Source: Eledone cirrhosa (lineage: Eukaryota). From it: a stretch of 64,000 bases of DNA. The notes beneath the pieces are model-generated. The model ran no database searches. It worked only from the letters and a program-made list of their open reading frames with translations, and was not told where the DNA came from. Shown in pieces: positions 5,718-46,200 of this stretch; the first letter of the stretch is position 1; each line of letters begins with the position of its first letter. The DNA lies in NCBI GenBank assembly GCA_964016885.1, contig OZ024743.1, positions 10,974,001 through 11,038,000 on the forward strand. Direction: 5' to 3'. The translations under genes were made by a program, and so were the position numbers.

Positions 5718-5826
5718 CTGATTGGCCAGTCTGCTGATATGCAAATCTGGCTGATCAGTGGATCTGTTAATATGCAGATCTGACTGATCAGCCAGTCTGC
5801 TAATATGCAAATCAGGCCAATCAGTC
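5718..5826. repeat. Degenerate 33-bp tandem repeat (~3.3 units) containing ATGCAAAT
   Basis: ctgattggccagtctgctgatatgcaaatctgg / ctgatcagtggatctgttaatatgcagatctga / ctgatcagccagtctgctaatatgcaaatcagg. Confidence 0.7.
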
Positions 5827-5888
5827 ACTGTATACTTTCGAAAATAGCATATATTTTCACTAGCTCTGACAGTTGGCAGGTGAACAGT

Positions 5889-5938
5889 GAGCTGTACTGA
5901 TGAAGGGTGATACCCAGAAACATTAGTGTCTGCAGTTC
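5889..5938 (+). ncRNA. Type I hammerhead ribozyme (canonical core, GUC site)
   Basis: GAGCTGTA-CTGATGA-A GGGT gat ACCC A-GAAA-CA ttag TG-TC-TGCAGTTC: 8-bp stem I with two GU pairs, 4-bp stem II, 3-bp stem III. Confidence 0.8.
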
Positions 5939-6996
5939 TGTTTACATGCCAACATAAGAGAAAGAATGAGGGGCTCATTCTACTGACATGACTTTAAAAA
6001 TGAGGTTTGTTTGCATAATTGCAAACGAATCCAATATTATTATTATTATTCGAAAACCTCAGATTACATTTATTGTATTCAACCATGTAGAGCGAAATAA
6101 ACATTTTTTTAAATTATATATATATATATATGCGCCCGAGCATTCACACACATACGGGCGCTAATACGCTTCATGATAGCCTTTTGACAGTAACATGAGC
6201 TCTACCCATTAAAATTACTGCAGAAAGTTAAGGGTTTAAATGCGAAATACATCACGTCGATATGCTAAATAGCGAGATATAGGTGAAGAATCATTTTGAT
6301 TTCATGTTAGTTGGAATCATATGTATAGCTATTGTTGTTTAGACTCATGTGAGTTCTGGTTGTCACTGCGACTGTATGATTCTGAGTGTGTGTATGAATT
6401 TTTAATTGTATATGTAAAGGTGAATCTGCGTTTGAATGTGTAAATGCATAGTTAAATGTGTGCGTGTTTGTGTTCATGTGTGTGTGAGCGTGCGTGTATG
6501 TGCATGTATGTGCATGTGTGTGTTTCTGTGTGTGTATATGTGTTTGTGCGTAAATGATTGTTTGTGTATTAGTAGGAGCTTGTGTTTATAAGTATGTGCA
6601 TGTAGTAGTGTTTTGTTTATGTATATGAATTATCCTATATGTGATAGTAGGTATATGTCTGCATAGGTGTGTAAGTGTATTCTTAAATGTATATTTAAAT
6701 TTGTTAATGTCTGTATATGTTTGAGAGTACGAAAGATTGTGTTATTGTGTGATGGTATTTTTAAGTGTCTTTCAGTTTGTAAGTGCATATGTTAACTTTT
6801 TACGGGAAATATCTCCCCCCCCCCCCCATCTCTCTCTACCCCCTCTTTCTATCTCTCTCTGTCTCTGAATGCGTAAGCTCATAAGTAATGCTTAAATAAG
6901 TTTTCACCACAAAATCTTTGGTGGTGGTGGTGGTGGTGGTTGCTATGGATTTCCCCCGCGAATCTCTCTTTACTCGCTAAACGTATTTCCTAAAAG

Positions 6997-9435: not shown

Positions 9436-12394
9436 ATTATTTGGGTTTACTTCAGTTAGATTTAATTTTAAATTCCTATTATTAATTTTTGCTATATTCT
9501 GGGCTACATTCATAGTTGAATAGTAAGAGAGCTTGACTGTATGTCTGTTAAAAATGGAGTGATACTTGTGGGACTTAGGAAAACATTTATCTAGAGCTTT
9601 AAAGAATTGGTGTGCTAAAGGTGTCTTAATTCCTAATGATATTGGAGGTGAATACTAAATTATTTTTTAGTTCTTGTTTTTCTATTTGATTTATTATTTT
9701 TGTTAAGTTGTTTAAATTCATTATTATTATTATTATATATTATATTATATTATTTAGGAGGTTGATTTATACTATTCTTATCTATGTAATTAATTTTATT
9801 AGTGTATTCAGCTCTGTGTAGAGCCTCATTGTAATATTCTACTTTGTTATCAAATATATATTTATTAGCTGAGAGTCTAGATATTCTTTGCTGGACACTA
9901 TTGACTATAGTTTTTTTAACGTTTCTAGGGTGATTTGAGTAGAAGCTGACATAATTTAGGTTTTCATTAATTTTATGGAATGGGTAATATAGGCCAGAGT
10001 TAAGGTTTAGTATAACATCTAAGAAATTAACAATTTTATTATCGTTTTCTATTTCTAACTGCAATTTCGTATGTAAGGCGTTAAGAATGAAGATGCCAAC
10101 GAGATCTGCAACTTGAGCTGAGTCCGAAGAACTCATCGTAATATCAAAATTCTTCGGTCTTTCTGCTCTAGTCCAGAGATCGTTGTTAAATTCAATAAGG
10201 GTTTTTCGTGCAGTTAATATAATTTTTATTTCTTCGCTAGATACGTCAGTATCTTAGAGCTTTATTAAGTAAATTAGGAGTTATTGAAGAATAATAATTA
10301 GCTATATCCATTTGTATAAATTTAGTATTATTTTTAGATTTAATGTTTACAAACCAATCTATTACTTCATTTATACCGTTCCAAAGCTCGAGATAGGATT
10401 TTTGTTTGAGTATTGGTATAATTTTGTCAAGTATATTTTTACTAATAATTCCTAGATCAGATTTAGACGGTGCTATAAGCCTGACTGGTAGGTCTGCTTC
10501 AAAATTTATTTTATGGTCTTTCATATTTATTTTCGGTTGCCTTGGTATGAAGGGTTCGGTCCTACGCTCAATTCCTAATTTGGAGATAATTTCAAAAGCT
10601 TCTTTTTTAAGGTTGTTGGATCTTCTTTACAGGTTTTTTTTAATAATTTTTTCTAAGTTCTTTCAGTATTAAATTATTGTAGTCTTCCTTTTCAATTCCA
10701 TATAAATTGTCAATTTTGTCAGATTTAACGAGGATCTTAGTTGGTTTTTTTTAAGTTATTAATTTTATTTTTGAGGCCTTTGACGTATTCCTGGCTATGG
10801 TAAGGGTATTTTTTTTAAATTTAATACTTATTATACTTATTAGTTCATTTTCGAACTCAGCTAAAAGTTTATTGAATGGTGGATTCTTCCTGGATTTAAA
10901 TATAAGGTTGAAGTTATATTTAGAATTGGTCTTTTCAGCACTTGATTTCTTTTCAAAGTGGAAAGCACGCCAGCGGAGTCTTCTTATGAAAGAATCAGAT
11001 TTTTCAATTAGCTGCTTCATGTATTCCTTATTAGTTGGTAAATGTGCATGCTTGAGAGATGAGGAGATCTTAAAGTATTCTATCATTTATTAGTGGTTAG
11101 AATTTGTGAAAGCAGAAGCTTCAAGAACTGTGAAATAATTGAAAGATCATGTCCAAATTTTCACCAGTAAATGTATGTATGTGTATTTATGCAAGTATAT
11201 ATGTAAGTATGTAAATATATTTTGACCAACGGTAACATCAAACCAGACAATGAAAGATTGTCATGCTCTTTCGTTCTGCCTTTCTGGCGTTTAGAACCTC
11301 AGAGGCATGTTAACACATGATCCCAGCGAACATGTGTAACCCCAGAAGATAGCAAGGGAAAAGCATTGAAAGAACCATACCAACTTGTGGTGCCCATTCT
11401 TGAGGGTGACTATCTTCTTCCCAATAGCAGTGTTTAGAGTAGTTTAAGAACCCAAGACATCAGAAGTTTCCCTGCTATCGGTTCAATGATAAATATAACG
11501 GAAAGTGGCCATCACTTCAATAGCTCGTTATCTTCAGCTTGTTGGGCCCCGAAACTTGGATTTGTCACTGAATTCACTGGGTGAAAGAATGTTTCACAGC
11601 ATGTTGTGACCTCTATGTTGGGCTTACCATCGCAGAACGGGGAAATATGTATGCCATCTTTCTTTTTGCTATCCCCTCGATCTAAAGCAATCGATATGAA
11701 GCCAGCAGCACCCAAGCTTCACTTAATGATCTCGTTAAGAGTGACATGCCGTGAGAGGGGACCGGCATCTAGGCGGCATATCAGTGGATGAAGACTGAAT
11801 GCGACTTCCTCTTTTACCCTTCTGATGACGAGGAATTGAATTAATATTTCTCTTTGAAGACGTTCAATCTGTGTTAATCTTTCATCTACAGCCATCCACT
11901 CACTCAGTATATTTGTCTCTCTGTCAATCTTATCTATTTGTCTATCTTTTTCATGCTCTTAACGATCTGTCTTTCTCTTTCATACTCGTAATCATCTGTC
12001 TATCTCATATTTTCAGCCGTCTATCTATTTTATACTCGTATCTATTTGTCTATCGATACATATATATGTGCACACACAAATATACACGCACACAGATATA
12101 CGTGTGTGTACGCGTATTTCTTTGTATATGTGAATATGTGTTAAAATGGAGTGGGGATAAGTTTCCATATCAAGTAATTGTAGAGGGTGTAGAGGAGAGA
12201 TTGACAATAGATATTTACATAATATCACGCGTATTTCAACCTCACGGTATCAAAATAATTTTTAGTATCAAAGTGAGTGTGTGTATGTGTGTATAGTTGT
12301 GTGTGTGGGTGCGCGCGCGCGCGCGCGCGTGTCTGTGTGTGTGTGTGTGTGTTTGTACGTGTGTGTATGCAACTGCGTGTAAATGTGTGTAGCT

Positions 12395-13025: not shown

Positions 13026-13210
13026 ATATAGATGAGATTCTACAGGACTAGAACTGTTTCATTCATTAGAAATCATCAGGAATCCCTGATGATTTCTAAT
13101 GAATGAAACAGTTCTAGTCCTGTAGAATCTCATCTATATTAAAACTGTTATACTCTGCTATGTATTGAGTACCTTACTTACTGTGGTTACCTCCGACTCA
13201 ACCCGGAATA
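13026..13210. mobile_element. Fold-back HHR element in (TA)n: perfect 55-bp-arm palindrome carrying hammerheads on both strands
   Basis: Arms 13026-13080 and 13085-13139 with spacer aatc. Same family as 25553-26025. Confidence 0.8.
13036..13084 (-). ncRNA. Type I hammerhead ribozyme (GUA site), 243-nt-unit family
   Basis: Minus: GATTC-CTGATGA-T TTC taat GAA T-GAAA-CAG ttctagtc CTG-TA-GAATC. Confidence 0.7.
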
Positions 13211-29281: not shown

Positions 29282-30571
29282 AACTTTGAATAACTTTGAA
29301 ATGTTTTGGCCAGTATTGGCCCAGGCCATGTCTAACTTAATAGCACCACCTGGCGAAGTCTTTCAATTCAGGATTTGGGCACCATGGCCCATTCGAGAAG
29401 AGAATTACTGTTTGCGGAGACATATCCGGGTGTGGGTGGTTTGTCCGGGATTACTTGGAGGAATTTGTCCAAAGACTTCTTGAATTTTGTGTGGTCAGTT
29501 TCTGTTTTGACGTGTCCTGGTGTGATGTTGAAGAGAGCAGGGCCGATTGAGGTGAAATAATTGTGCCGTATTGTTGTTATGAGTTGCGATTTAGATTTTT
29601 GAATGGGACGGATAGCACGGGGCCCAAGCCTTGGGTGTATCTTGAAGGCGATGCCAACATCATTTGGGCAGTGATGATGGAACATTTTCCACATCATGCA
29701 GATAATATAACGCTCACGGCGACGTTGGAGTGAGTAAAGTTTCAGGTTTTCCAATCGACCCCAGTAGTCAAGGTCTGACATGCCATCTATCTTTTTCGTG
29801 ATTGCCCTTTGAGGAGCTTCAAGTTTCATGATACTTTGTTTCGTGTGGGGAGACCACAGTGGACAACAGTATTCAAGGTGTGGTCGGGCGAAAGTAGAGA
29901 AGAGAAGGATAATGGTGCGGGAATCTCTCGACTGGAAGGTTCTGAGGATCCAGGAACACATTCTGCGGGCCATGTCAACTTTGCTGCTTATATGCGTGGT
30001 CCAGCTTATGTTGCTGTCCACGGTTACTCCCAAGTCTCTGATGTTGTTAGATGCCACGAGAGTTTCCCCGGAGGGAAGGGAGTACGGGAGTTTCAGAGCA
30101 TCCTCTTTTCCAAAGTGGATCAGTTCGAATTTGTCTTCGTTCAGTAACATGTTGTTCTTTTCTGCCCATTGGGTAACAGCCAGTAGGTCTGACTGAAGGC
30201 TTATCCGGTCATCCACGCCATTGATGACCTTTTGGAGCTTGGAATCATCAGCGAAAATTTTAATGTTGCTGTGTTTGATGATGTCAGTGATGTCATTAAT
30301 ATAGATGATGAAGAGAAGTGGGCCCAACACAGTGCCTTGTGGGACTCCACTACTGACTTTGGCTGGGCTTGATTTGACTCCCTCAACTACAACATGTTGG
30401 GTTCTGTTTGACAGGAAGCTCTTGATCCACTGCAGCAGCTTTCCAGTGACACCAATATTGGACAGCTTTCTCAGTAGAATGTTATGATCAACCCTGTCAA
30501 AGGCCTTGCTGAAATCAAGGTAGATAACATCAGTGTTGGAACCCTCTCCCAAGGCTCTCAAAATGTCATCA
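29281..30571 (-). mobile_element. 5'-truncated CR1-clade LINE with an uninterrupted RT reading frame (~400 codons)
   Basis: YLDFSKAFDRVDH, GVPQGTVLGPLLF, FADD, RDLGV, RPHLEYC, SLQRRR. 3' tail (ttcaaagtta)x2 abuts (TA)n. Confidence 0.92.
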
Positions 30572-30818
30572 AATATATATATGTATATATAACTTGAAAC
30601 AAAATGAAAACGAAATTTCATTTCTCACTCTTAGTATGGGACAGCTTTCTCAGTAGAATGTTATGATCAACCCTGTCAAAGGCCTTGCTGAAATCAAGGT
30701 AGATAACATCAGTGTTGGAACCCTCTCCCAAGGCTCTCAAAATGTCATCAAATATATATATGTATATATAACTTGAAACAAAATGAAAACGAAATTTCAT
30801 TTCTCACTCTTAGTATGG
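30461..30818. repeat. 179-bp tandem duplication spanning the CR1 5' truncation and the edge of the HHR array
   Basis: 30461-30639 equals 30640-30818. Confidence 0.9.
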
Positions 30819-30886
30819 CACTTACTTAAATGTAAGTATGCATGTATACGTACATACATATATGTATACAGACGTACAGTAGCATG

Positions 30887-30926
<40 letters not shown>

Positions 30927-31085
30927 TATATACATATGCATACAGGTACACATACATATATGCACGTATCAGTTTAGCGGCGCTAACGTCGCTTTGTTCG
31001 TTTGTAAACAAACTGAACAGCCTGAATTTATGCCATACGGTGTTAAGGCAACCACGTCACCTTTTTGTTCAACACTGACACAGGA

Positions 31086-31128
31086 ACGATGTACTAGTTT
31101 CAAGCTTGTTAGCTATCATCAGCACCGT
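31086..31128 (-). ncRNA. Minimal type I hammerhead (array copy 1)
   Basis: Minus: ACGGTG-CTGATGA-T AGC taacaa GCT T-GAAA-CTAG-TA-CATCGT. Confidence 0.85.
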
Positions 31129-31553
31129 TTACCCATCTGCCAGATAGTTGAACGTTCGAAAGTATATACTTTCCTTATGAAAATTAACGGCTGAGCAGCC
31201 TAATTTGCATATTGAGTGAGTTAAATCGGTCAGGCATACCGAAAACGATAAATTGAAACAAAAAGAAAACGAAATTTCATTTCTCACTCTTAGTATGGCA
31301 CTTACTTAAATGTAAGTATGCATGTATACGTACATACATATATGTATACAGACGTACAGTAGCATGCACATATATATATATATATATACATATATATATA
31401 CATATGCATACAGGTACACATACATATATGCACGTATCAGTTTAGCGGCGCTAACGTCGCTTTGTTCGTTTGTAAACAAACTGAACAGCCTGAATTTATG
31501 CCATACGGTGTTAAGGCAACCACGTCACCTTTTTGTTCAACACTGACACAGGA

Positions 31554-31596
31554 ACGATGTACTAGTTTCAAGCTTGTTAGCTATCATCAGCACCGT
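31554..31596 (-). ncRNA. Minimal type I hammerhead (array copy 2)
   Basis: Identical to copy 1, 468 bp away. Confidence 0.85.
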
Positions 31597-31797
31597 TTAC
31601 CCATCTGCCAGATAGTTGAAAGTTCGAAAGTATATACTTTCCTTATGAAAATTAACGGCTGAGCAGCCTAATTTGCATATTGAGTGAGTTAAATCGGTCA
31701 GGCATACCGAAAACGATAAATTGAAACAAAATGAAAACGAAATTTTCATAAGGAAAGTATATACTTTCGAACGTTCAACTATCTGGCAGATGGGTAA

Positions 31798-31840
31798 ACG
31801 GTGCTGATGATAGCTAACAAGCTTGAAACTAGTACATCGT
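31798..31840 (+). ncRNA. Minimal type I hammerhead (array copy 3)
   Basis: acggtg ctgatga tagctaacaagctt gaaa ctag ta catcgt. Confidence 0.85.
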
Positions 31841-32263
31841 TCCTGTGTCAGTGTTGAACAAAAAGGTGACGTGGTTGCCTTAACACCGTATGGCATAAAT
31901 TCAGGCTGTTCAGTTTGTTTACAAACGAACAAAGCGACGTTAGCGCCGCTAAACTGATACGTGCATATATGTATGTGTACCTGTATGCATATGTATATAT
32001 ATATGTATATATATATATATATGTGCATGCTACTGTACGTCTGTATACATATATGTATGTACGTATACATGCATACTTACATTTAAGTAAGTGCCATACT
32101 AAGAGTGAGAAATGAAATTTCGTTTTCATTTTGTTTCAATTTATCGTTTTCGGTATGCCTGACCGATTTAACTCACTCAATATGCAAATTAGGCTGCTCA
32201 GCCGTTAATTTTCATAAGGAAAGTATATACTTTCGAACGTTCAACTATCTGGCAGATGGGTAA

Positions 32264-32306
32264 ACGGTGCTGATGATAGCTAACAAGCTTGAAACTAGTA
32301 CATCGT
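32264..32306 (+). ncRNA. Minimal type I hammerhead (array copy 4)
   Basis: Identical, 466 bp after copy 3. Confidence 0.85.
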
Positions 32307-32729
32307 TCCTGTGTCAGTGTTGAACAAAAAGGTGACGTGGTTGCCTTAACACCGTATGGCATAAATTCAGGCTGTTCAGTTTGTTTACAAACGAACAAAG
32401 CGACGTTAGCGCCGCTAAACTGATACGTGCATATATGTATGTGTACCTGTATGCATATGTATATATATATGTATATATATATATATATGTGCATGCTACT
32501 GTACGTCTGTATACATATATGTATGTACGTATACATGCATAGTTACATTTAAGTAAGTGCCATACTAAGAGTGAGAAATGAAATTTCGTTTTCATTTTGT
32601 TTCAATTTATCGTTTTCGGTATGCCTGACCGATTTAACTCACTCAATATGCAAATTAGGCTGCTCAGCCGTTAATTTTCATAAGGAAAGTATATACTTTC
32701 GAACGTTCAACTATCTGGCAGATGGGTAA

Positions 32730-32772
32730 ACGGTGCTGATGATAGCTAACAAGCTTGAAACTAGTACATCGT
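32730..32772 (+). ncRNA. Minimal type I hammerhead (array copy 5)
   Basis: Identical, 466 bp after copy 4. Confidence 0.85.
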
Positions 32773-33019
32773 TCCTGTGTCAGTGTTGAACAAAAAGGTG
32801 ACGTGGTTGCCTTAACACCGTATGGCATAAATTCAGGCTGTTCAGTTTGTTTACAAACGAACAAAGCGACGTTAGCGCCGCTAAACTGATACGTGCATAT
32901 ATGTATGTGTACCTGTATGCATATGTATATATATATGTATATATATATATATATGTGCATGCTACTGTACGTCTGTATACATATATGTATGTACGTATAC
33001 ATGCATACTTACATTTATG

Positions 33020-33155
<136 letters not shown>

Positions 33156-33169
33156 TGTGTGTGTTTCCT

Positions 33170-35277: not shown

Positions 35278-38200
35278 TGTTTCTTTTATTTGCCACTAGG
35301 GCATCAAAAGTGGGACAAGTACAAAGGGGGGAGTTTACACAAAAAGGCGTCCTCAATAAGGAGGAGGCAATAACAAAATATAAAAATAAAATAAGATATA
35401 ACAAAAAATAAAATTTTTAACAAAATCCTCAATAGAGAGGAGGCGCCTTGGGGGGTCGCACACACCCCCGAAAAAAGTGTGCAACCCTTCTCCTCAGGAG
35501 CACAGAGAAGGGGTGCTCCCTTGGTCTTTCATCTTCCTCACCTATAGTCTGATGTAGAGTGAAGGCCCATTCACACGGGCCATTCTCGCCACTTTCACCC
35601 ATCTTTCATAGAAACGGCTGGGGTGCAGCACCTCTCTCTCCATCCTGATCCTTCTTCCGAAATGATATCGGAAGAAACGGACCAGTTGTTGGCCAGAGAG
35701 AAAGGTGCCTGACCTCAGTCCTTTCAGACGCGTCCACCATACAACCTCTTTCGCCATGGCTATTACGCACAGAAACACCGCCTCTGCTTCATCTTTGAAG
35801 GGGGGAGGCGGCTTGATCATTACAATAGACTCGGTGGTCAACCGGATCGGTCCCACCCTTGACAGCAGTTGTTCGACATAGCCCCACAGATCGGCTACGC
35901 CCGAGCAGTGTACCAATGCGTGTGCAACGGTTTCCTCGTCGCACACGCATCTGGGACAGATCTTTTTGGCGGGGTCCCTACCCGGGCGCCCGTGTCTGTA
36001 GAGCCTTTCTCGAACGGGTAAAGCCCCTCGGTAGCACTGCCAGGCCAGGGACTTCTGGAAGTTGTCCATAGGTCCCGGGCTGAATGTCCTACCGAACAGG
36101 CTGGCCAGTTCGTCCTCCTCCATGTCTAGGGCTTCTCCGAGGGCGTCGTCGCACCTGCTGCGTACCAGCCCTCTATAGAATGTTGCGGTGGAGTCTCCAC
36201 TGATAACCGGATCCGCCTGCCAGAGGGCGGTGAGCGCCTGGGCACACTCAGTGTGCCAGGCGCCCAGTTTTCTCGGTCTTTGCTTGACCCAGGATTGCAG
36301 CTCGGTGAGTGAGACGAGTCTGGGAAAGGTTCGTCTTACAAACGAGGCCCACACCGGTTGTCCGGTGAGGAATACGTAGAGGTGCCGTAGCCTTAATGCG
36401 TGTTTACGCATCATTAGCCACGGCATCCCCAGCCCTCCTTTCGAAGGGTGTTGACAGCAGATGGATCTCCTCACCATAGGAGCCCGCCTCTTCCAAAGGA
36501 ATTGGAAGAGCGCGCGCTCCATCTTGGTGAGGGTTTCCCTTGGGCAGGGCACTACGGTCAGGCGGTAGTAGATGACGGACGCTATGTAGGTGTTCGCCAC
36601 CTCCGCCCGACCTTTCAGGGATAGTTTGCAACTGGCCCACTTCTGGGTCAGTGCAAACACCCTGTTCGTAACCTCCGCCCAGTTTTTCTCCACCTGGAGG
36701 TCCGGTCCGAACCAGACCCCGAGCAACTTCACCGGGCCCTCCGTCCAGCGTCCGACGACGCCATCGGAGGGCATCGGTCTGCCCCTCCACGTGCCGAGTT
36801 GCAAACCGATCGACTTGTCCCGGTTCAGCTTAGCCCCTGTGAACTTTTCGTACTCCTCCAGTAAGGTGCCGACCGCCTCGATTTCGGAGGCCGTCGACAC
36901 CATTACTGTCACGTCATCGGCGTAGGCCGACACCGCTTTCCGCAATCCCGGTTCCAAAGGGATGCCCTGCAACAACTCCAACTTCCGCAGTAGTGGCTCT
37001 AGAGTCAACACATACAGAAGGGAGGAGAGAGGGCACCCTTGTCGGATGGACCGCGCGATTTTGAACGGCTCCGAGAGGTAGCCGTTCACCTTGACCCTAG
37101 AGCAGATGCGGCTGCTGTGCATAGCAGTGATCCAGCCCCTGAAAACGGGTCCGAAGCCTGCCGCCGCTAGCACCGCATCCAGGTAACCATGGTCGACCCT
37201 ATCGAACGCCTTAGATTGATCCAAGTTGATCAGAGCCCCACCAAAGCCGGGTTCGTTCCCAACCCTCTCTATGATGTATCGCATGAGGTGGAGGTTGTCA
37301 TGGATGGACCTGGACGGGATAGCGCATGTCTGCGCATCTCCCACCAGGTTGCCCACGACAAGCGCCAACCTCTTTGCTAGCACCTTGGCCAAAATCTGTA
37401 ACTCTGTATTTAGCAGTGTTATGGGCCTGAAGTTACTTATTTCGTCCCCCTTGTTCTCGTCCTTCCTCACTAGCGTGACTACGCCCTTGGTCACAGTACA
37501 GGGAATTCTCCCGTTCTGTTGCCAGTTGCAGTAGACCACCTCGAGGAGATCGGGGAACAAGTCCGGCATAGCTAGATATAATTCGTAAGGAAGACCATCG
37601 AGACCCGGGGATTTGCGTTTGCCGCATTGGCTCAGCACGTCCTCTATCTCAGCGGCCGAAATCGGCTCCCTGTCCGAGAGGCGCGGCAGGCCGTCGAGGT
37701 ATGGACCGAAGTCCACGTTCCCAACCGGCTCCCCGCCCCTCCCGAACAGTCGGGCAAAGTGCCTTTGAAAGGCCTCACACATCTGCTTAGGCTCAAGAAT
37801 CGCTCGTCCATCCAGGTCTCGCAAAGACCGGATGGTGGATTTAGTTCCACTGTTGGCCTCTGTCACGCGGGCCCAGCTAACAGCTTTGGTCCCCTCGTTC
37901 CCTAGAGCACGTATTTTACTTCGGACAACGCAGCCTTCGTGCTTCGCGTCGAAAAACTGGCTCAAAGCCGTTCTCGACGCTAGCACTCTGGCCACGTCGC
38001 CGCTTCTAATTGCCTCTTCTACTCTATCTATTAGCTCCCTTTCCTTCCTATTCCTATCCGCAGCTAGAACCTTACTAAATTCTATCGAGACTACTCTAAT
38101 CTCTCTCTTTAGAGATACCCACCACCTGCTGTTGACGATCGCTCCAGTCAACCGTTCCTTAACTAACGTACTAATCCGATTCCTGTAGGCTCTACTTGCC

Positions 38201-39742
38201 GGCAAGGACAAGTTGAGCTTCCAGTAACCGGGGCCCTGTCTATGAGTTCTGTCAAGGTTGACCATGCAGGTCACTAATTTGTGGTCTGAATAGCCAACCA
38301 TGCGCATTTTTGGACAACTTAAAAAGTCCTTATCCTTAATTCTAACTAAGAACCTATCTAGGTACGACCTAGATGATCCGCTACGATTTGCCCAAGTCCA
38401 GGTTGGCGCAGTCGGAAAATCTAGTCGATATCTATCGGCCAGGTCAAATCGACCGATTAACCCTTTGAGGCTATTACACCCCTCTCTATCGGGGCAGACC
38501 CTACGTAGTCCCAGCGTGCATCTAGGATACCATTCCAGTCCCCCACTAATAGCAAGGAGCGGGACGTCCCTAGAAAAGTCTCCAGACGATGGAAGAAGTC
38601 CGGCCGCATTGACCCGAAAGGGCCGTAGGCGGCTACCAACCTAAACGCTCCGCCTTTACCACTGCCAAGGTCCAGAACCACTAGTCGACCCTCCGGGTCC
38701 AAATGTACCATCTGTGTTGCGAGACCCAGATGTTTTTGCAGCAGAACGACAACTCCACCCCCGCCTCCGGGCTGACAGAGAGATGCGTGCATCTCAAAGT
38801 CATCAAAGGTGGGGGCCAGCTGTCGCACGTTGCTGATCCGGGCCTCGCAAATAACCATCACATCTATACGTTGTGACCTGAGGTCATTTAGAAGCATTGC
38901 TTGCTTCCAAGTTGAGCCCAGGCCACGCGCATTTAAACAGCCTACTCTTAGCATAGCCATGTTGGTAGTGAAGAGAAAAGGCACTTACCTCTCTGCGTCC
39001 CGGGTATCGGGCTGCACAATTTCCATTAGGGTGGGGGATGGGTTGTTGGGTGGGGTGGTGGTTTGTGGAAGTGTGGGGGCATCAGTGTGATGTGTGGTTG
39101 GGGAGCTTGGAGTTGTGTGGGTGTTTGGGGAGGGGGTGGGATAGTTTTTTAGGAGGACGCGGTTAATGGGCCCGACGCAGGGGGGACCCACGTCCTCTTT
39201 AAAATTGTTTTTTAAAGTTTTATAGGTGTCCTGTGGGGCCTTAATCATTTTGAGGTGGGGGAAATCCCCTGCCTGGGTGAAGTTAGGCCCTTGTGTTTTT
39301 ATTAGATTGTTGTTGTACACAATGTTTAACAGTTTTTTTGTTTCTTGTGTTTATGTATGTGTATGCATGTTTTTGTTTTTGTGTGGTGTTTTTTGTTTGC
39401 TGTTGTTGTGAGCTCTTTTGTGTTGGTGTCAGTGTTATGTTTTGGGGAGGGGTTGTTTTCATTTGTGTGTCTGAGGTGTGTTTTCTTTTTTTTCTTTTGA
39501 TTGTGTGGAAGTGCTCCTCCTCGTCTGACGACGAACTAGGGTCATCTTCCGCGTTGAAGGGGAGGGGTATATTTTCGGGTTGTGTTTGCGGTGCCGGGTG
39601 TTTTGGAAATTGTTTTTGTTTTTTGAGTGGAGGGGATGGGTTGGACATTGTTTTGTTTTGGTTTGAGCTGTGGTGGTTGTTTTTGTAGTGGTTGGCCAGT
39701 TCGTCTTCCTCCATGCTTAGGGCTTCTCCGAGGGCGTCGTCG
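35278..39742 (-). mobile_element. Tx1-clade (L1 group) LINE, 5'-truncated in ORF1, embedded in (GATA)n
   Basis: Nearly complete ORF2 plus a low-complexity ORF1 tail (38985-39690). (GATA)n at 35213-35277 and 39743-39800. Confidence 0.9.
35542..38960 (-). pseudogene. Tx1-like ORF2 (APE - RT - CCHC zinc knuckle), broken near 38460
   Basis: LNARGL, VGDWN, YLDRF, SDHK (APE); GYWKLN; KSPGLDGLPYE, FRPITLLN, LDQSKAFDRVDH, IRQGCPLS, AYADD (RT); CPRC..ETVAHALVHC. Confidence 0.9.
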
Positions 39743-43238: not shown

Positions 43239-46200
43239 CTATAGCACCTCTTTGTAGACGATACTGCGTGTCATCCCTTGAGGAGTGTAAGCAAAAAGTC
43301 CATTCCTGCTCCCTACGCGGGAACAGGCAACATAAAGTTGGCCATGGAAGAACCATGGCTCCCTCAAATGGATGCCCGCCACCGACAATGTTTGCCCTTC
43401 TGAGTTGTTAATGGACATGGCAAAACATGGTCTCACCGGGAATTGGGAACGCCGGAAATCGGACGGGATATCTGACACCGAGGGGAAAAGGTTCATCCTT
43501 GGAATGAAAACATTCTCCCCTCTCCCGCACCCCGTTACAGTGGTGGCCTCAATCAAGTGGGGTGTCAGTGACTTGACGACCATGCGAGTACCGTTGCACT
43601 GCTTTGGTGGACGCAAGTTCCTTATTAGCATAATGGGACAGCCAACCCTAAGCTTAAGAATGTGAGGTGGGACCCCTGGGGGCTCAAGGGAATTTAATAA
43701 CTCAACCGGATAATTAAGATATCGTCGGGGTCTGACGTCCGGTCGATAGATTTGAAGATGTGCTCTTTACCGGGAATCTTCTCAATCAGCTGCTCGTTAA
43801 TAAAATTAACCATCGTATTTCTTGGAGCAAGGATGGCTCTTTCACTGAGCTAATCGAGGTTTTTAAAGTTAGATGAGACATTAGAAAAACTGCTTCCCAA
43901 AGGTCAGAAGGGCTGCTGACAATGTTGCACAGGGAGTCGATTGCTATGCCGACCTTGCCCTCACCAAGTGCTAAAATGTTCTGAGCAAATTCTGCAGACA
44001 TTTTGTCACCATGCAAATGAGCACGCATATTTGTGCTCAGGTACAAACTCTTCACTTGGAGCCACAACATGGACGACTTAAGGTAGGCACGCACTTCATC
44101 AACTCTTGTCCCTTTGAGGATGACAGGCAGCGTTTGCCGAAAATCCCCTGATAGCAGAAGGGTTACGCCACCCATAGGAGCCGTAGAATCCCTAATGTCT
44201 TTCAGGGTCCTGTCCAATGCCTCAAGGGCACCCTTGTGTGCCATTGTGCACTCATCCCAAACAATGAGGCAACATGTTTTGAGAACCAGAGCTTCGTTTG
44301 AACTCTTGCTGATATTGCATGTTGGTGTCTCAGTTTTTACTAAATCCAAGGGGAGTTTAAAGGTTGTATATGCTGTACTGCCTCTCGGCAGCAAAGTAGC
44401 AGCGATCCCGGACGATGCAACGGCCAACGCAATTTTTTTCTCCTGACGAATCTTAGCAAGAATCAATTTCATTACAAAAGTTTTTCCAGTACCTCCAGGA
44501 GCATCGAGAAAGTAAATACCCCCAGTCTGATTTTGAACCGCGTCAATGATAGTTAAATAGGCCAACCTTTGGTCCGACAGAAGTTTGGGCTCATTTCCCT
44601 CTAAGTATTGGGAAAGAGATTCGATGTCATATGCTGTTTCCCGCAACAAATCCGGGGCCAACGTGTTAGCGTCTTCTCTGATGGTTGACGGCAAGCCATA
44701 CGTCGCCAACTCACTCTCACCCATGTCAAGGAGGGCGTCCTCGATATCAATGAGTGCCCTGTTGTACATAATATCGCTGTAACCAACTTCCACTGAAGGA
44801 TACTGCAGATGAGCCAGGCGCAGGAAGTCCTCAGACATGAAGTCTCTGTACTTGACCTATAAAGATTTGGGATCACCCAATTCACACTTCTGAAGCAAAA
44901 TGGCAAAGAGTTCCCGTAGACTTTTAGGTGATTTCAACAAAGCACCCTCTGCTAAAGTGGAATCCCATTGCGAATCATCTTCCAAAAGACCACGCTTAAA
45001 GCAGGCTTCCCGGTACGTATCACATATTTCTCCATCAACAGTTTTGAGGTGCTGAAAACTTTGTGGGCCTACAACTTCATGCAGAAGAAGGCGGAGATGA
45101 AAGCACTCATGCTGTTTGGGGGAACAGTGTAAACCCTTCCAAGACAGCTGTCAAATTTTACACCAGGGTGTCTTTCAACAGCCTGACCTGACTTTCTTCG
45201 CACCCAAGTATTTTTCGACCATATAAAGTAGGATGGAACCTGGGGGTACACAATTGTTTGCGCAAATGTATCAAACTGGCAAAGTTTGAAGAAACCCGTC
45301 AGAGTGGTCTCTTTCGGATCGGCGGCCAACTTGGCGGCGGTTTGGTCTGTAAAGTAAACCCTTTTCCCATTTCCCAAATGTACCGCAAGCTGTACGATGG
45401 CGGGGTGCCGTTGGTGTAGGGGTAAACCAAATAGGCGCCAAAAAGCTTCATTGCTACTGATGTACCGCCCCGCCAAGTATTCTGTGACCTCGTCCCTGCT
45501 ATTTTCAGCTTGAAATGCGAACATTGCGGCATCAAAGCCCTTATTTACATATTTGCATATGTACTTTATCAACTTGACGGAGTTGCAAAACTCAACGTTG
45601 ATTTGGGCGTTGAACATCTTCAAGAGAAGCGGGCAGTAAGGGACCACCCATCTATTGTCGATTTGACCTCCCTTTATTGTTGTGGTGAAGCCACCGTTCT
45701 CGGACCGTCTCCGCCAGTACAGGGGGTACCCGTCGCCACCAGTCTGAGTCTGGTCAACAAATTTTTTGGGGTATCCCTTACTGCACGACCCCCCTTTCAG
45801 ACACGTGTGATGCTCATTAGGACCCGACGCACACGGACCATGTTAGCTTTGACGATGTCATCTAATTCCTGGTCAGTTGCTGAGATTTCAGCCGAAATGA
45901 AGCTGTCTATGGCATTTGAATTGATTTTATCAGCTAACCAAATCAAAATGTGAGCATGTGGCAGCCCTCGTTTTTGCCATTCGACGGTGAACATGTCACA
46001 TTTTACAGCCCCAAATACCTGACCCTTTTTGATTAAAGCCATGAGTTTAGCCAGTTTCAGTCTGAACACTCTGGCAATGAGGTCATGTCTGTTCGAATAA
46101 TTTTGCCCAGGAAAATGTTCACAGGTTACATTCCGATTCATATGTCTATAGCATTAATCTGTTATATGAAATATTATTTTGCGGGTTGTTATTTGCAATA

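Follow-up and report, generated by a model that had tools for sequence, protein, structure and literature searches.

Metazoan non-LTR retrozymes are described in the accessible text of PMC7229834 and of a 2026 preprint (bioRxiv 10.64898/2026.07.22.740005) as non-coding tandem units that measure a few hundred bp (170–400 nt), each with one canonical type I hammerhead ribozyme (HHR), present as thousands of dispersed copies with a GC content below 50% and a strongly self-paired predicted RNA. In the canonical metazoan type I HHR, helix I has 6–7 bp, helix II 4 bp and helix III 1–2 bp with a palindromic loop; the min-HHR of the same work lacks helix III and has a long helix II, a short helix I and a bulged base ahead of stem II (Cervera and de la Pena 2014, PMC4209133). 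Axolotl HHRs with a weak palindromic helix III and a U.U pair cut well only as dimers, and circularised monomers have been shown for the coral, mussel and axolotl retrozymes (PMC7229834). Eight of nine Xenopus dimers did not cleave (bioRxiv 10.64898/2026.07.22.740005).

The unit described here shares all of the general features of these retrozymes, and is slightly longer. It differs in being targeted to (TA)n, in having head-to-head arms and two fixed 3' ends, and in a candidate promoter, none of which is described in the accessible parts of those sources, and whilst circles have been demonstrated there, the circle here is predicted. Insertions of the endonuclease-bearing Penelope-like elements (PLEs; Neptune, Hydra and Poseidon clades; PMC8557442, PMC3846280, PMC11167929) resemble those of our unit: the partner is inverted and 5'-truncated, only one end has a tail, the targets are AT-rich or (TA)n, reverse transcription has two internal starts, and HHRs lie near the ends. 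Inverted pLTRs with a tail at one of their ends are known from PLEs (PMC8557442, PMC3846280), and in PMC11167929 both DNA strands are cut and extended, the tail is tied to two internal start sites, both sites are used by both strands, and the HHR is dispensable for insertion in vitro. Unlike these elements, the unit family has no ORF, forms multi-unit arms, carries a canonical rather than a min-HHR, has a tail of ~59 nt instead of 30–40 and uses its two sites strictly one of each.

Two further systems bear comparison. The Chlamys elements, for example MRC1, are likewise non-autonomous PLE dependants with multicopy head-to-tail insertions, but they resemble their autonomous partner at the 3' end (PMC8557442), and no such partner was found for our unit. 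Newt satellite 2, likewise built of tandem HHR repeats, has a weak palindromic helix III and requires dimers (PMC7229834). It differs in being a vertebrate repeat of ~330 bp. By the title of a 1994 paper by Coats, it is reportedly driven by an snRNA-type promoter.

Results

Two divergent arms of a dispersed, non-coding HHR unit

The window, a 64,000-nt stretch of Eledone cirrhosa DNA, contains an insertion made of two tandem arms that diverge from a common junction (Table 1). As the original prediction held, there are five identical type I HHRs, a 44-nt string recurring exactly five times (minus strand at 31085 and 31553, plus strand at 31798, 32264 and 32730), with periods of 468 in the minus arm and 466 in the plus arm, and the switch of orientation is indeed head-to-head. 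The limits given for the array, 30775..33015, have to be moved to 30768 and ~33017, and the five HHR copies do not amount to five full units: the array holds 4.8 units, with just three complete cut-to-cut monomers. The near-identity of the units is borne out, the full ones being 99.4–100% identical to the first plus-strand unit; the outermost left piece, with a TA tract 14 nt longer and one substitution, is 95.4% identical to it. The array is non-coding (the longest ORFs, 112 aa antisense and 48 aa sense, are of low complexity), and its description as retrozyme-like and young is upheld: it is one insertion of a dispersed HHR family.

Table 1. Features of the insertion in window coordinates; in the unit numbering, u1 is the first base 3' of the predicted cut
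Feature	Position	Strand	Remarks
Whole insertion	30768..33017	.	two divergent tandem arms of a 466–468 bp unit
Left arm	30768..31745	-	2.1 units (u281 to u310), with the long (tailed) site at its end
Right arm	31741..33017	+	2.7 units, u373 to ~u251; ends at the short site
5'-5' junction of the arms	31741..31745	.	AATTT overlap, 5 nt
Tail, ~59 nt	30768..30826	-	u252–310; left end of the insertion only
Left target tract	30750..30767	.	(TA)n
Right tract	33018..33164	.	(TA)n then (TG)n
Tandem duplication, 179 bp	30456..30813	.	LINE end, TA tract and 51 nt of unit end
Predicted long TA-rich hairpin	31952..32077	+	~u118–243; 3' base abuts the short end site; in every unit
Type I HHR	31085..31129	-	predicted cut after 31092
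Type I HHR	31553..31597	-	predicted cut after 31560
Type I HHR	31797..31841	+	predicted cut after 31834; upstream promoter-like block 5'-truncated
Type I HHR	32263..32307	+	predicted cut after 32300
Type I HHR	32729..32773	+	predicted cut after 32766
snRNA-type promoter-like block	32181..32229	+	octamer-like u347, TCAG u364, TATA u390; inferred start near 32254
Second promoter-like block	32647..32695	+	
Promoter-like block, left arm	31631..31679	-	
Promoter-like block, left arm	31163..31211	-	

Since both outer ends of the insertion merge into (TA)n, a target-site duplication cannot be read. The 179-bp duplication at the left junction probably postdates the insertion. An RT fragment (Pfam RVT_1; window 29368-30590, minus strand), which we take to be CR1-like, abuts the left TA tract, and a 98% identical copy of it also lies beside a unit array in locus L031.

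In a pattern search of the 3.0-Gb genome, the exact 36-nt HHR core gave 10,391 matches (control 0), and 4,373 were obtained with a marker of the young subfamily to which the window copy belongs. A sister core pattern gave 15,705 matches, and an octamer-plus-HHR pattern that excludes the window's family 10,796 (control 1). The locus is an ordinary copy among more than 10,000 family cores and is not special in itself. The family loci studied below are the matches listed first, on one contig (C1), and not a random sample; among the first 100 cores listed, a head-to-head switch was present in 17 of 53 clusters and a tail-to-tail switch in none of the 53.

It is most improbable that such an array is a local satellite arising from unequal crossing-over, or an artefact of assembly. 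The 179-bp duplication would suit such an origin, as would a likely block duplication in locus L071, and none of the contigs listed bridges the inversion junction, which is no real test. Against it stand thousands of dispersed loci with distinct junctions and the same two ends, units bearing their own substitutions, and the presence of the unit in contigs of other public runs (4,658 in X2), with the join of u310 to TA in X4 and X13. Parts of the unit occur in 20 public runs with many organism labels, and may there be diet or environmental DNA, as the raw reads of one such label gave no match. In run X23 no read and in run X1 no contig matched the unit, which is likewise no real test.

Several relatives were also seen. 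The sister family (C1 5.738-5.752 Mb, L126-L146, and many other loci) has a 466-bp period, arrays of ~30 units, a canonical G10.1-C11.1 pair and loop II as in the window's family. At window 5730-6120 (plus strand) lies a single copy of a distant octamer-plus-HHR family, with three repeats that resemble the octamer and, in exact form, a U1/U2-like ATCAGTCA element. Further HHR motifs in the window lie at 13034 (minus), 25887 (plus), 24986 (plus) and 26985 (minus), the last matching the 3'-end HHR of a coding PLE in L045. Among the papers listed in literature searches on octopus hammerhead ribozymes and cephalopod PLEs, none describes the family; the supplements of PMC7229834 and of the 2026 preprint may list cephalopod retrozymes. 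The word 'ribozyme' does not occur in the accessible text of the O. vulgaris repeat paper, and molluscs are not among the animals sampled in that of Li, Clavereau and Pollet 2026 (bioRxiv 10.64898/2026.07.22.740005).

Two fixed 3' ends and one arm for each

The 3' ends of the unit fall into two classes ~60 nt apart, at u~248–251 (46 calls) and u~305–310 (59 calls), these calls including one short-end internal deletion variant and counting the window's duplicated end twice. TA adjoins the 3' end in 45 of the 46 short-class and 56 of the 59 long-class calls. Every one of 37 head-to-head insertions has one short and one long end. These come from 44 adjacent minus/plus end pairs, four of which were dropped (<85% unit sequence between the ends; all four were one of each), whilst three 'both long' pairs were excluded as false calls on a palindromic hairpin.

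One arm per end class in 37/37 insertions suggests that two cDNAs were probably primed, each on TA at its own fixed site. The original prediction had proposed one cDNA with a PLE-style inversion; the inversion stands, but a single flipped cDNA is the less probable account. The arms overlap at their junction by 1–7 nt in 25 of the 37 insertions and by 16–34 nt in three; two junctions are blunt and seven gapped. Self-priming fold-back (PMC3846280) was considered and rejected, as it covers at most the three junctions with 16–34 nt overlaps. A literature search on PLE twin priming with inversion and a tail listed a single paper, which concerns human elements. Coding PLEs in the same TA tracts have one tailed and one short end in two intact cases. 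The inverted 5'-truncated partner, the tail at one end and the (TA)n target are features of a PLE-mobilised element, and we hold with high confidence that the unit is a non-autonomous HHR repeat mobilised by PLEs.

Relation to coding PLEs

A closer relation to PLEs is conceivable, in which an autonomous PLE has the unit as its own pLTR and the arrays are what is left of truncated PLEs. The tail, the inversion and the TA targeting are all PLE features (PMC8557442, PMC3846280), the 2026 preprint derives retrozymes from pLTRs (bioRxiv 10.64898/2026.07.22.740005), and our sample of the genome comes largely from one contig. Yet in 20 ten-kb loci, in 20 sister-family loci as far as these were listed, and in 56 more, no unit stood directly after a reading frame in the place of a terminal repeat, so that in the loci examined the unit is not a plain pLTR, in line with the original prediction. 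No junction was common to the 26 non-inverted 5' flanks, and no ORF with RT plus GIY-YIG lay between the repeats in the loci examined; moreover, the coding PLEs seen have pLTRs that bear no sequence relation to the unit and HHR motifs that are built differently. We therefore regard a pLTR origin of this kind as very unlikely. Widely spaced HHR pairs were examined as candidates for pLTR-ORF-pLTR elements; between them lay LINE-type ORFs or separate PLE fragments, or there was no ORF. As to a partner for mobilisation in trans, no PLE sharing sequence with the unit was found in ~0.64 Mb of sequence or in 56 further loci.

The PLE fragments near units are mostly separate insertions in the same TA tracts. 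In a single case (L040:3381-3600) a 5'-truncated PLE directly adjoins the unit at u214, no TA spacer lying between them, and the remainder of the unit is not seen beyond the 3' end of that PLE; it is possible that this fusion is a template-switch chimera that points to the partner enzyme. A young coding PLE family with copies 96–99% alike lies in the same TA tracts (L033, L034, L049, L050, L183) and has short and tailed ends of its own. Pfam named none of the PLE-like ORFs, and Atlas clusters gave HTH_animal, RVT_1 and GIY-YIG for them; by their motifs they are presumably Neptune-like and Hydra-like. The window also holds a 1032-aa RT reading frame (35542-38640, minus strand), PIF1 helicase (Helitron-like) fragments (43239-45842) and a decayed PLE RT fragment (9750-10253, minus strand).

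The hammerhead ribozyme

The predicted cut site of all five HHRs lies directly 3' of GUA. Helix I comprises 6–7 bp and a predicted extension. The 4 bp of helix II stand on a U.U pair and are capped by a four-base loop, and helix III consists of a single pair that closes a palindromic CUAG loop. The original prediction had called the ribozyme minimal, but by the layout in PMC4209133 it is a canonical type I HHR without the min-HHR features. It deviates from the canonical form in that U.U replaces G10.1-C11.1; among axolotl ribozymes, its helix III is like that of HHR_Amex1 and the U.U base of helix II like that of HHR_Amex2 (PMC7229834). An Rfam scan did not call the motif at the gathering score, and a loose HHR descriptor had 1 match in 20 shuffles of the window. 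The predicted energy of the core helices is -22.2 kcal/mol for the dimer versus -5.4 for two closed monomers; on paper, a dimer fold is favourable.

Across 31 distinct HHR rows, 97.7% of cells are paired, and one stem I position varies between G.U, U.G, A-U and C-G. Across subfamilies, covariation is seen in stem I and in the hairpin downstream. The invariance of the core is no evidence, because the rows are related and were chosen by a core pattern. In a diverged family stem II has been replaced, with loop II and the flanks of stem I kept; the retention of loop II despite a new stem II suggests loop-loop contacts. The monomer RNA is predicted to be strongly self-paired: the complete unit has a z of -8.75, and with the TA-rich part left out z is -4.1.

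The template of reverse transcription

The 5' ends of the arms are evenly spread over the unit; of 92, just one is found 6 nt or less from the cut, where we estimate that ~3 would be expected by chance. Run-off at the cut site was rejected on this count; the lack of a pile-up indicates that the enzyme is not running off the end of a linear monomer produced by cleavage. Rare variants were followed in 61 multi-piece insertions (61 of 69, the overlapping L011 and L034 being removed). Fifteen such variants, in 10 insertions, are fixed in all the units that cover them, and six of these span both arms. Partial variants number four and singletons 193. Fixed private variants and the absence of a 5' pile-up would both fit a circular monomer as template. 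The fixed variants show that the family has repeatedly passed through a single-unit template, as expected of a circle, but they place this bottleneck no more closely than at some recent point, and copies of an already homogeneous multimer would be indistinguishable.

The template could alternatively be an uncut linear multimer read through a genomic array, the same twin priming by a PLE following and HHR cleavage being rare or late. It too predicts no run-off at the cut, the unprocessed RNA is the main substrate in PMC11167929, and the unit HHR has a weak helix III and a U.U pair. Locus L071, where both arms carry the same ordered run of unit variants, is better accounted for by a heterogeneous multimer as template, or by recombination at a later time, than by a single monomer circle. 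However, private variants are fixed rather than partial by 15 to 4, and the L071 marker variant, with 37 copies genome-wide that are mostly singletons, shows no daughter set in which its order is repeated. Arms of up to 15 units would also require uncut RNAs of 7 kb, and the HHR structure is maintained by covariation. A linear multimer therefore seems to us an unlikely template, though one of some weight, and the circular monomer is preferred.

A candidate internal promoter

Each unit has, ~45–120 nt upstream of the cut, a block that resembles the genome's own U6 and U1/U2 promoters. Its octamer, 119 nt upstream of the cut, is retained in diverged families. In host U6 genes, a matching element at ~-78 together with a TATA at -30 is found in 3/5 distinct loci (20 of 48 loci were fetched), and the -78 element with TATA at -30 recurs in the best of the eight U6atac loci fetched. 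A matrix built from four U6/U6atac upstream regions scores the unit at 17.3, a value reached by 1 of 1000 shuffles, with U1/U2 upstream regions at 4.7 or less. TCAGT is present at -56 to -58 in all eight U1/U2 upstream regions examined, and the TCAG of the unit, 26 nt before its TATA, has the U1/U2 spacing. The octamer-to-TATA distance is 43 nt in the unit versus 47–49 nt in the host U6-type genes, and is thus 4–6 nt short. The host U1/U2 genes share TCAGT at ~-57 and a TATA-like box (host snRNA loci L147-L149, L199, L167-L169, L207-L212).

Judged by this likeness, the block is a likely candidate for an snRNA-type promoter internal to the unit. The inferred start, at ~u420, falls just before stem I, so that each arm could yield one full monomer from its own promoter. 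Pol III is doubtful as the polymerase and Pol II is favoured, as sense-strand T runs of 5–8 occur in 37 of 82 distinct internal monomers. The blocks of the two arms point away from each other, and the ~900-bp dsRNA that had been suggested is set aside for this reason, since it would need a read-through transcript from outside. Among the papers listed in a literature search on retrozymes with snRNA or octamer promoters, none contains the word 'retrozyme'.

Discussion

The reading we prefer, with a probability of roughly 0.6, is that the insertion is a young non-coding retrozyme in (TA)n, moved in trans by an endonuclease-bearing PLE that copies a predicted circular monomer from both nicked strands. 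Transcription, probably by Pol II, would start from the candidate internal snRNA-type promoter at ~46 nt upstream of the cut and read into the next unit. Two HHRs would then pair via the palindromic helix III and release a monomer of 466–468 nt, which a host ligase would circularise. The PLE protein would nick (TA)n on both strands, and the two 3' ends would prime at different sites, one at u~250, the second at u~310; each cDNA would go round the template over a length that varies, and the ends at which the two stop would be joined through a few shared bases. Against this reading stand the variant order in L071, the lack of a PLE with shared sequence in the loci covered, the dispensable HHR and the use of both sites by both strands in PMC11167929, the uncleaved Xenopus dimers, the U.U pair, and the short octamer-to-TATA distance together with a matrix of only four loci.

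More tentatively, and with the odds somewhat against it, the superfamily as a whole, with its tens of thousands of cores, may be a self-contained snRNA-type unit with captured U6/U1-like elements. Its circle would be copied by a dimeric PLE RT whose active sites stand at two registers 60 nt apart and are primed by the two nicked strands, giving one tail per insertion. If true, this dimeric-RT reading would explain the PLE tail, the inversion and the tandem structure by one mechanism.

The transcription of animal retrozymes and the enzyme that moves them are open questions in the field, and the published case for PLEs as the movers, in the accessible parts of the sources cited here, consists of co-occurrence and pLTR homology only. 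The host snRNA promoter layout may help the design of expression tools in this animal group. The family offers insertion footprints of PLE machinery, a one-tail rule that holds in 37 insertions, evidence for a single-unit template and a candidate promoter, and its PLE footprint is unusually clean for an animal non-LTR retrozyme.
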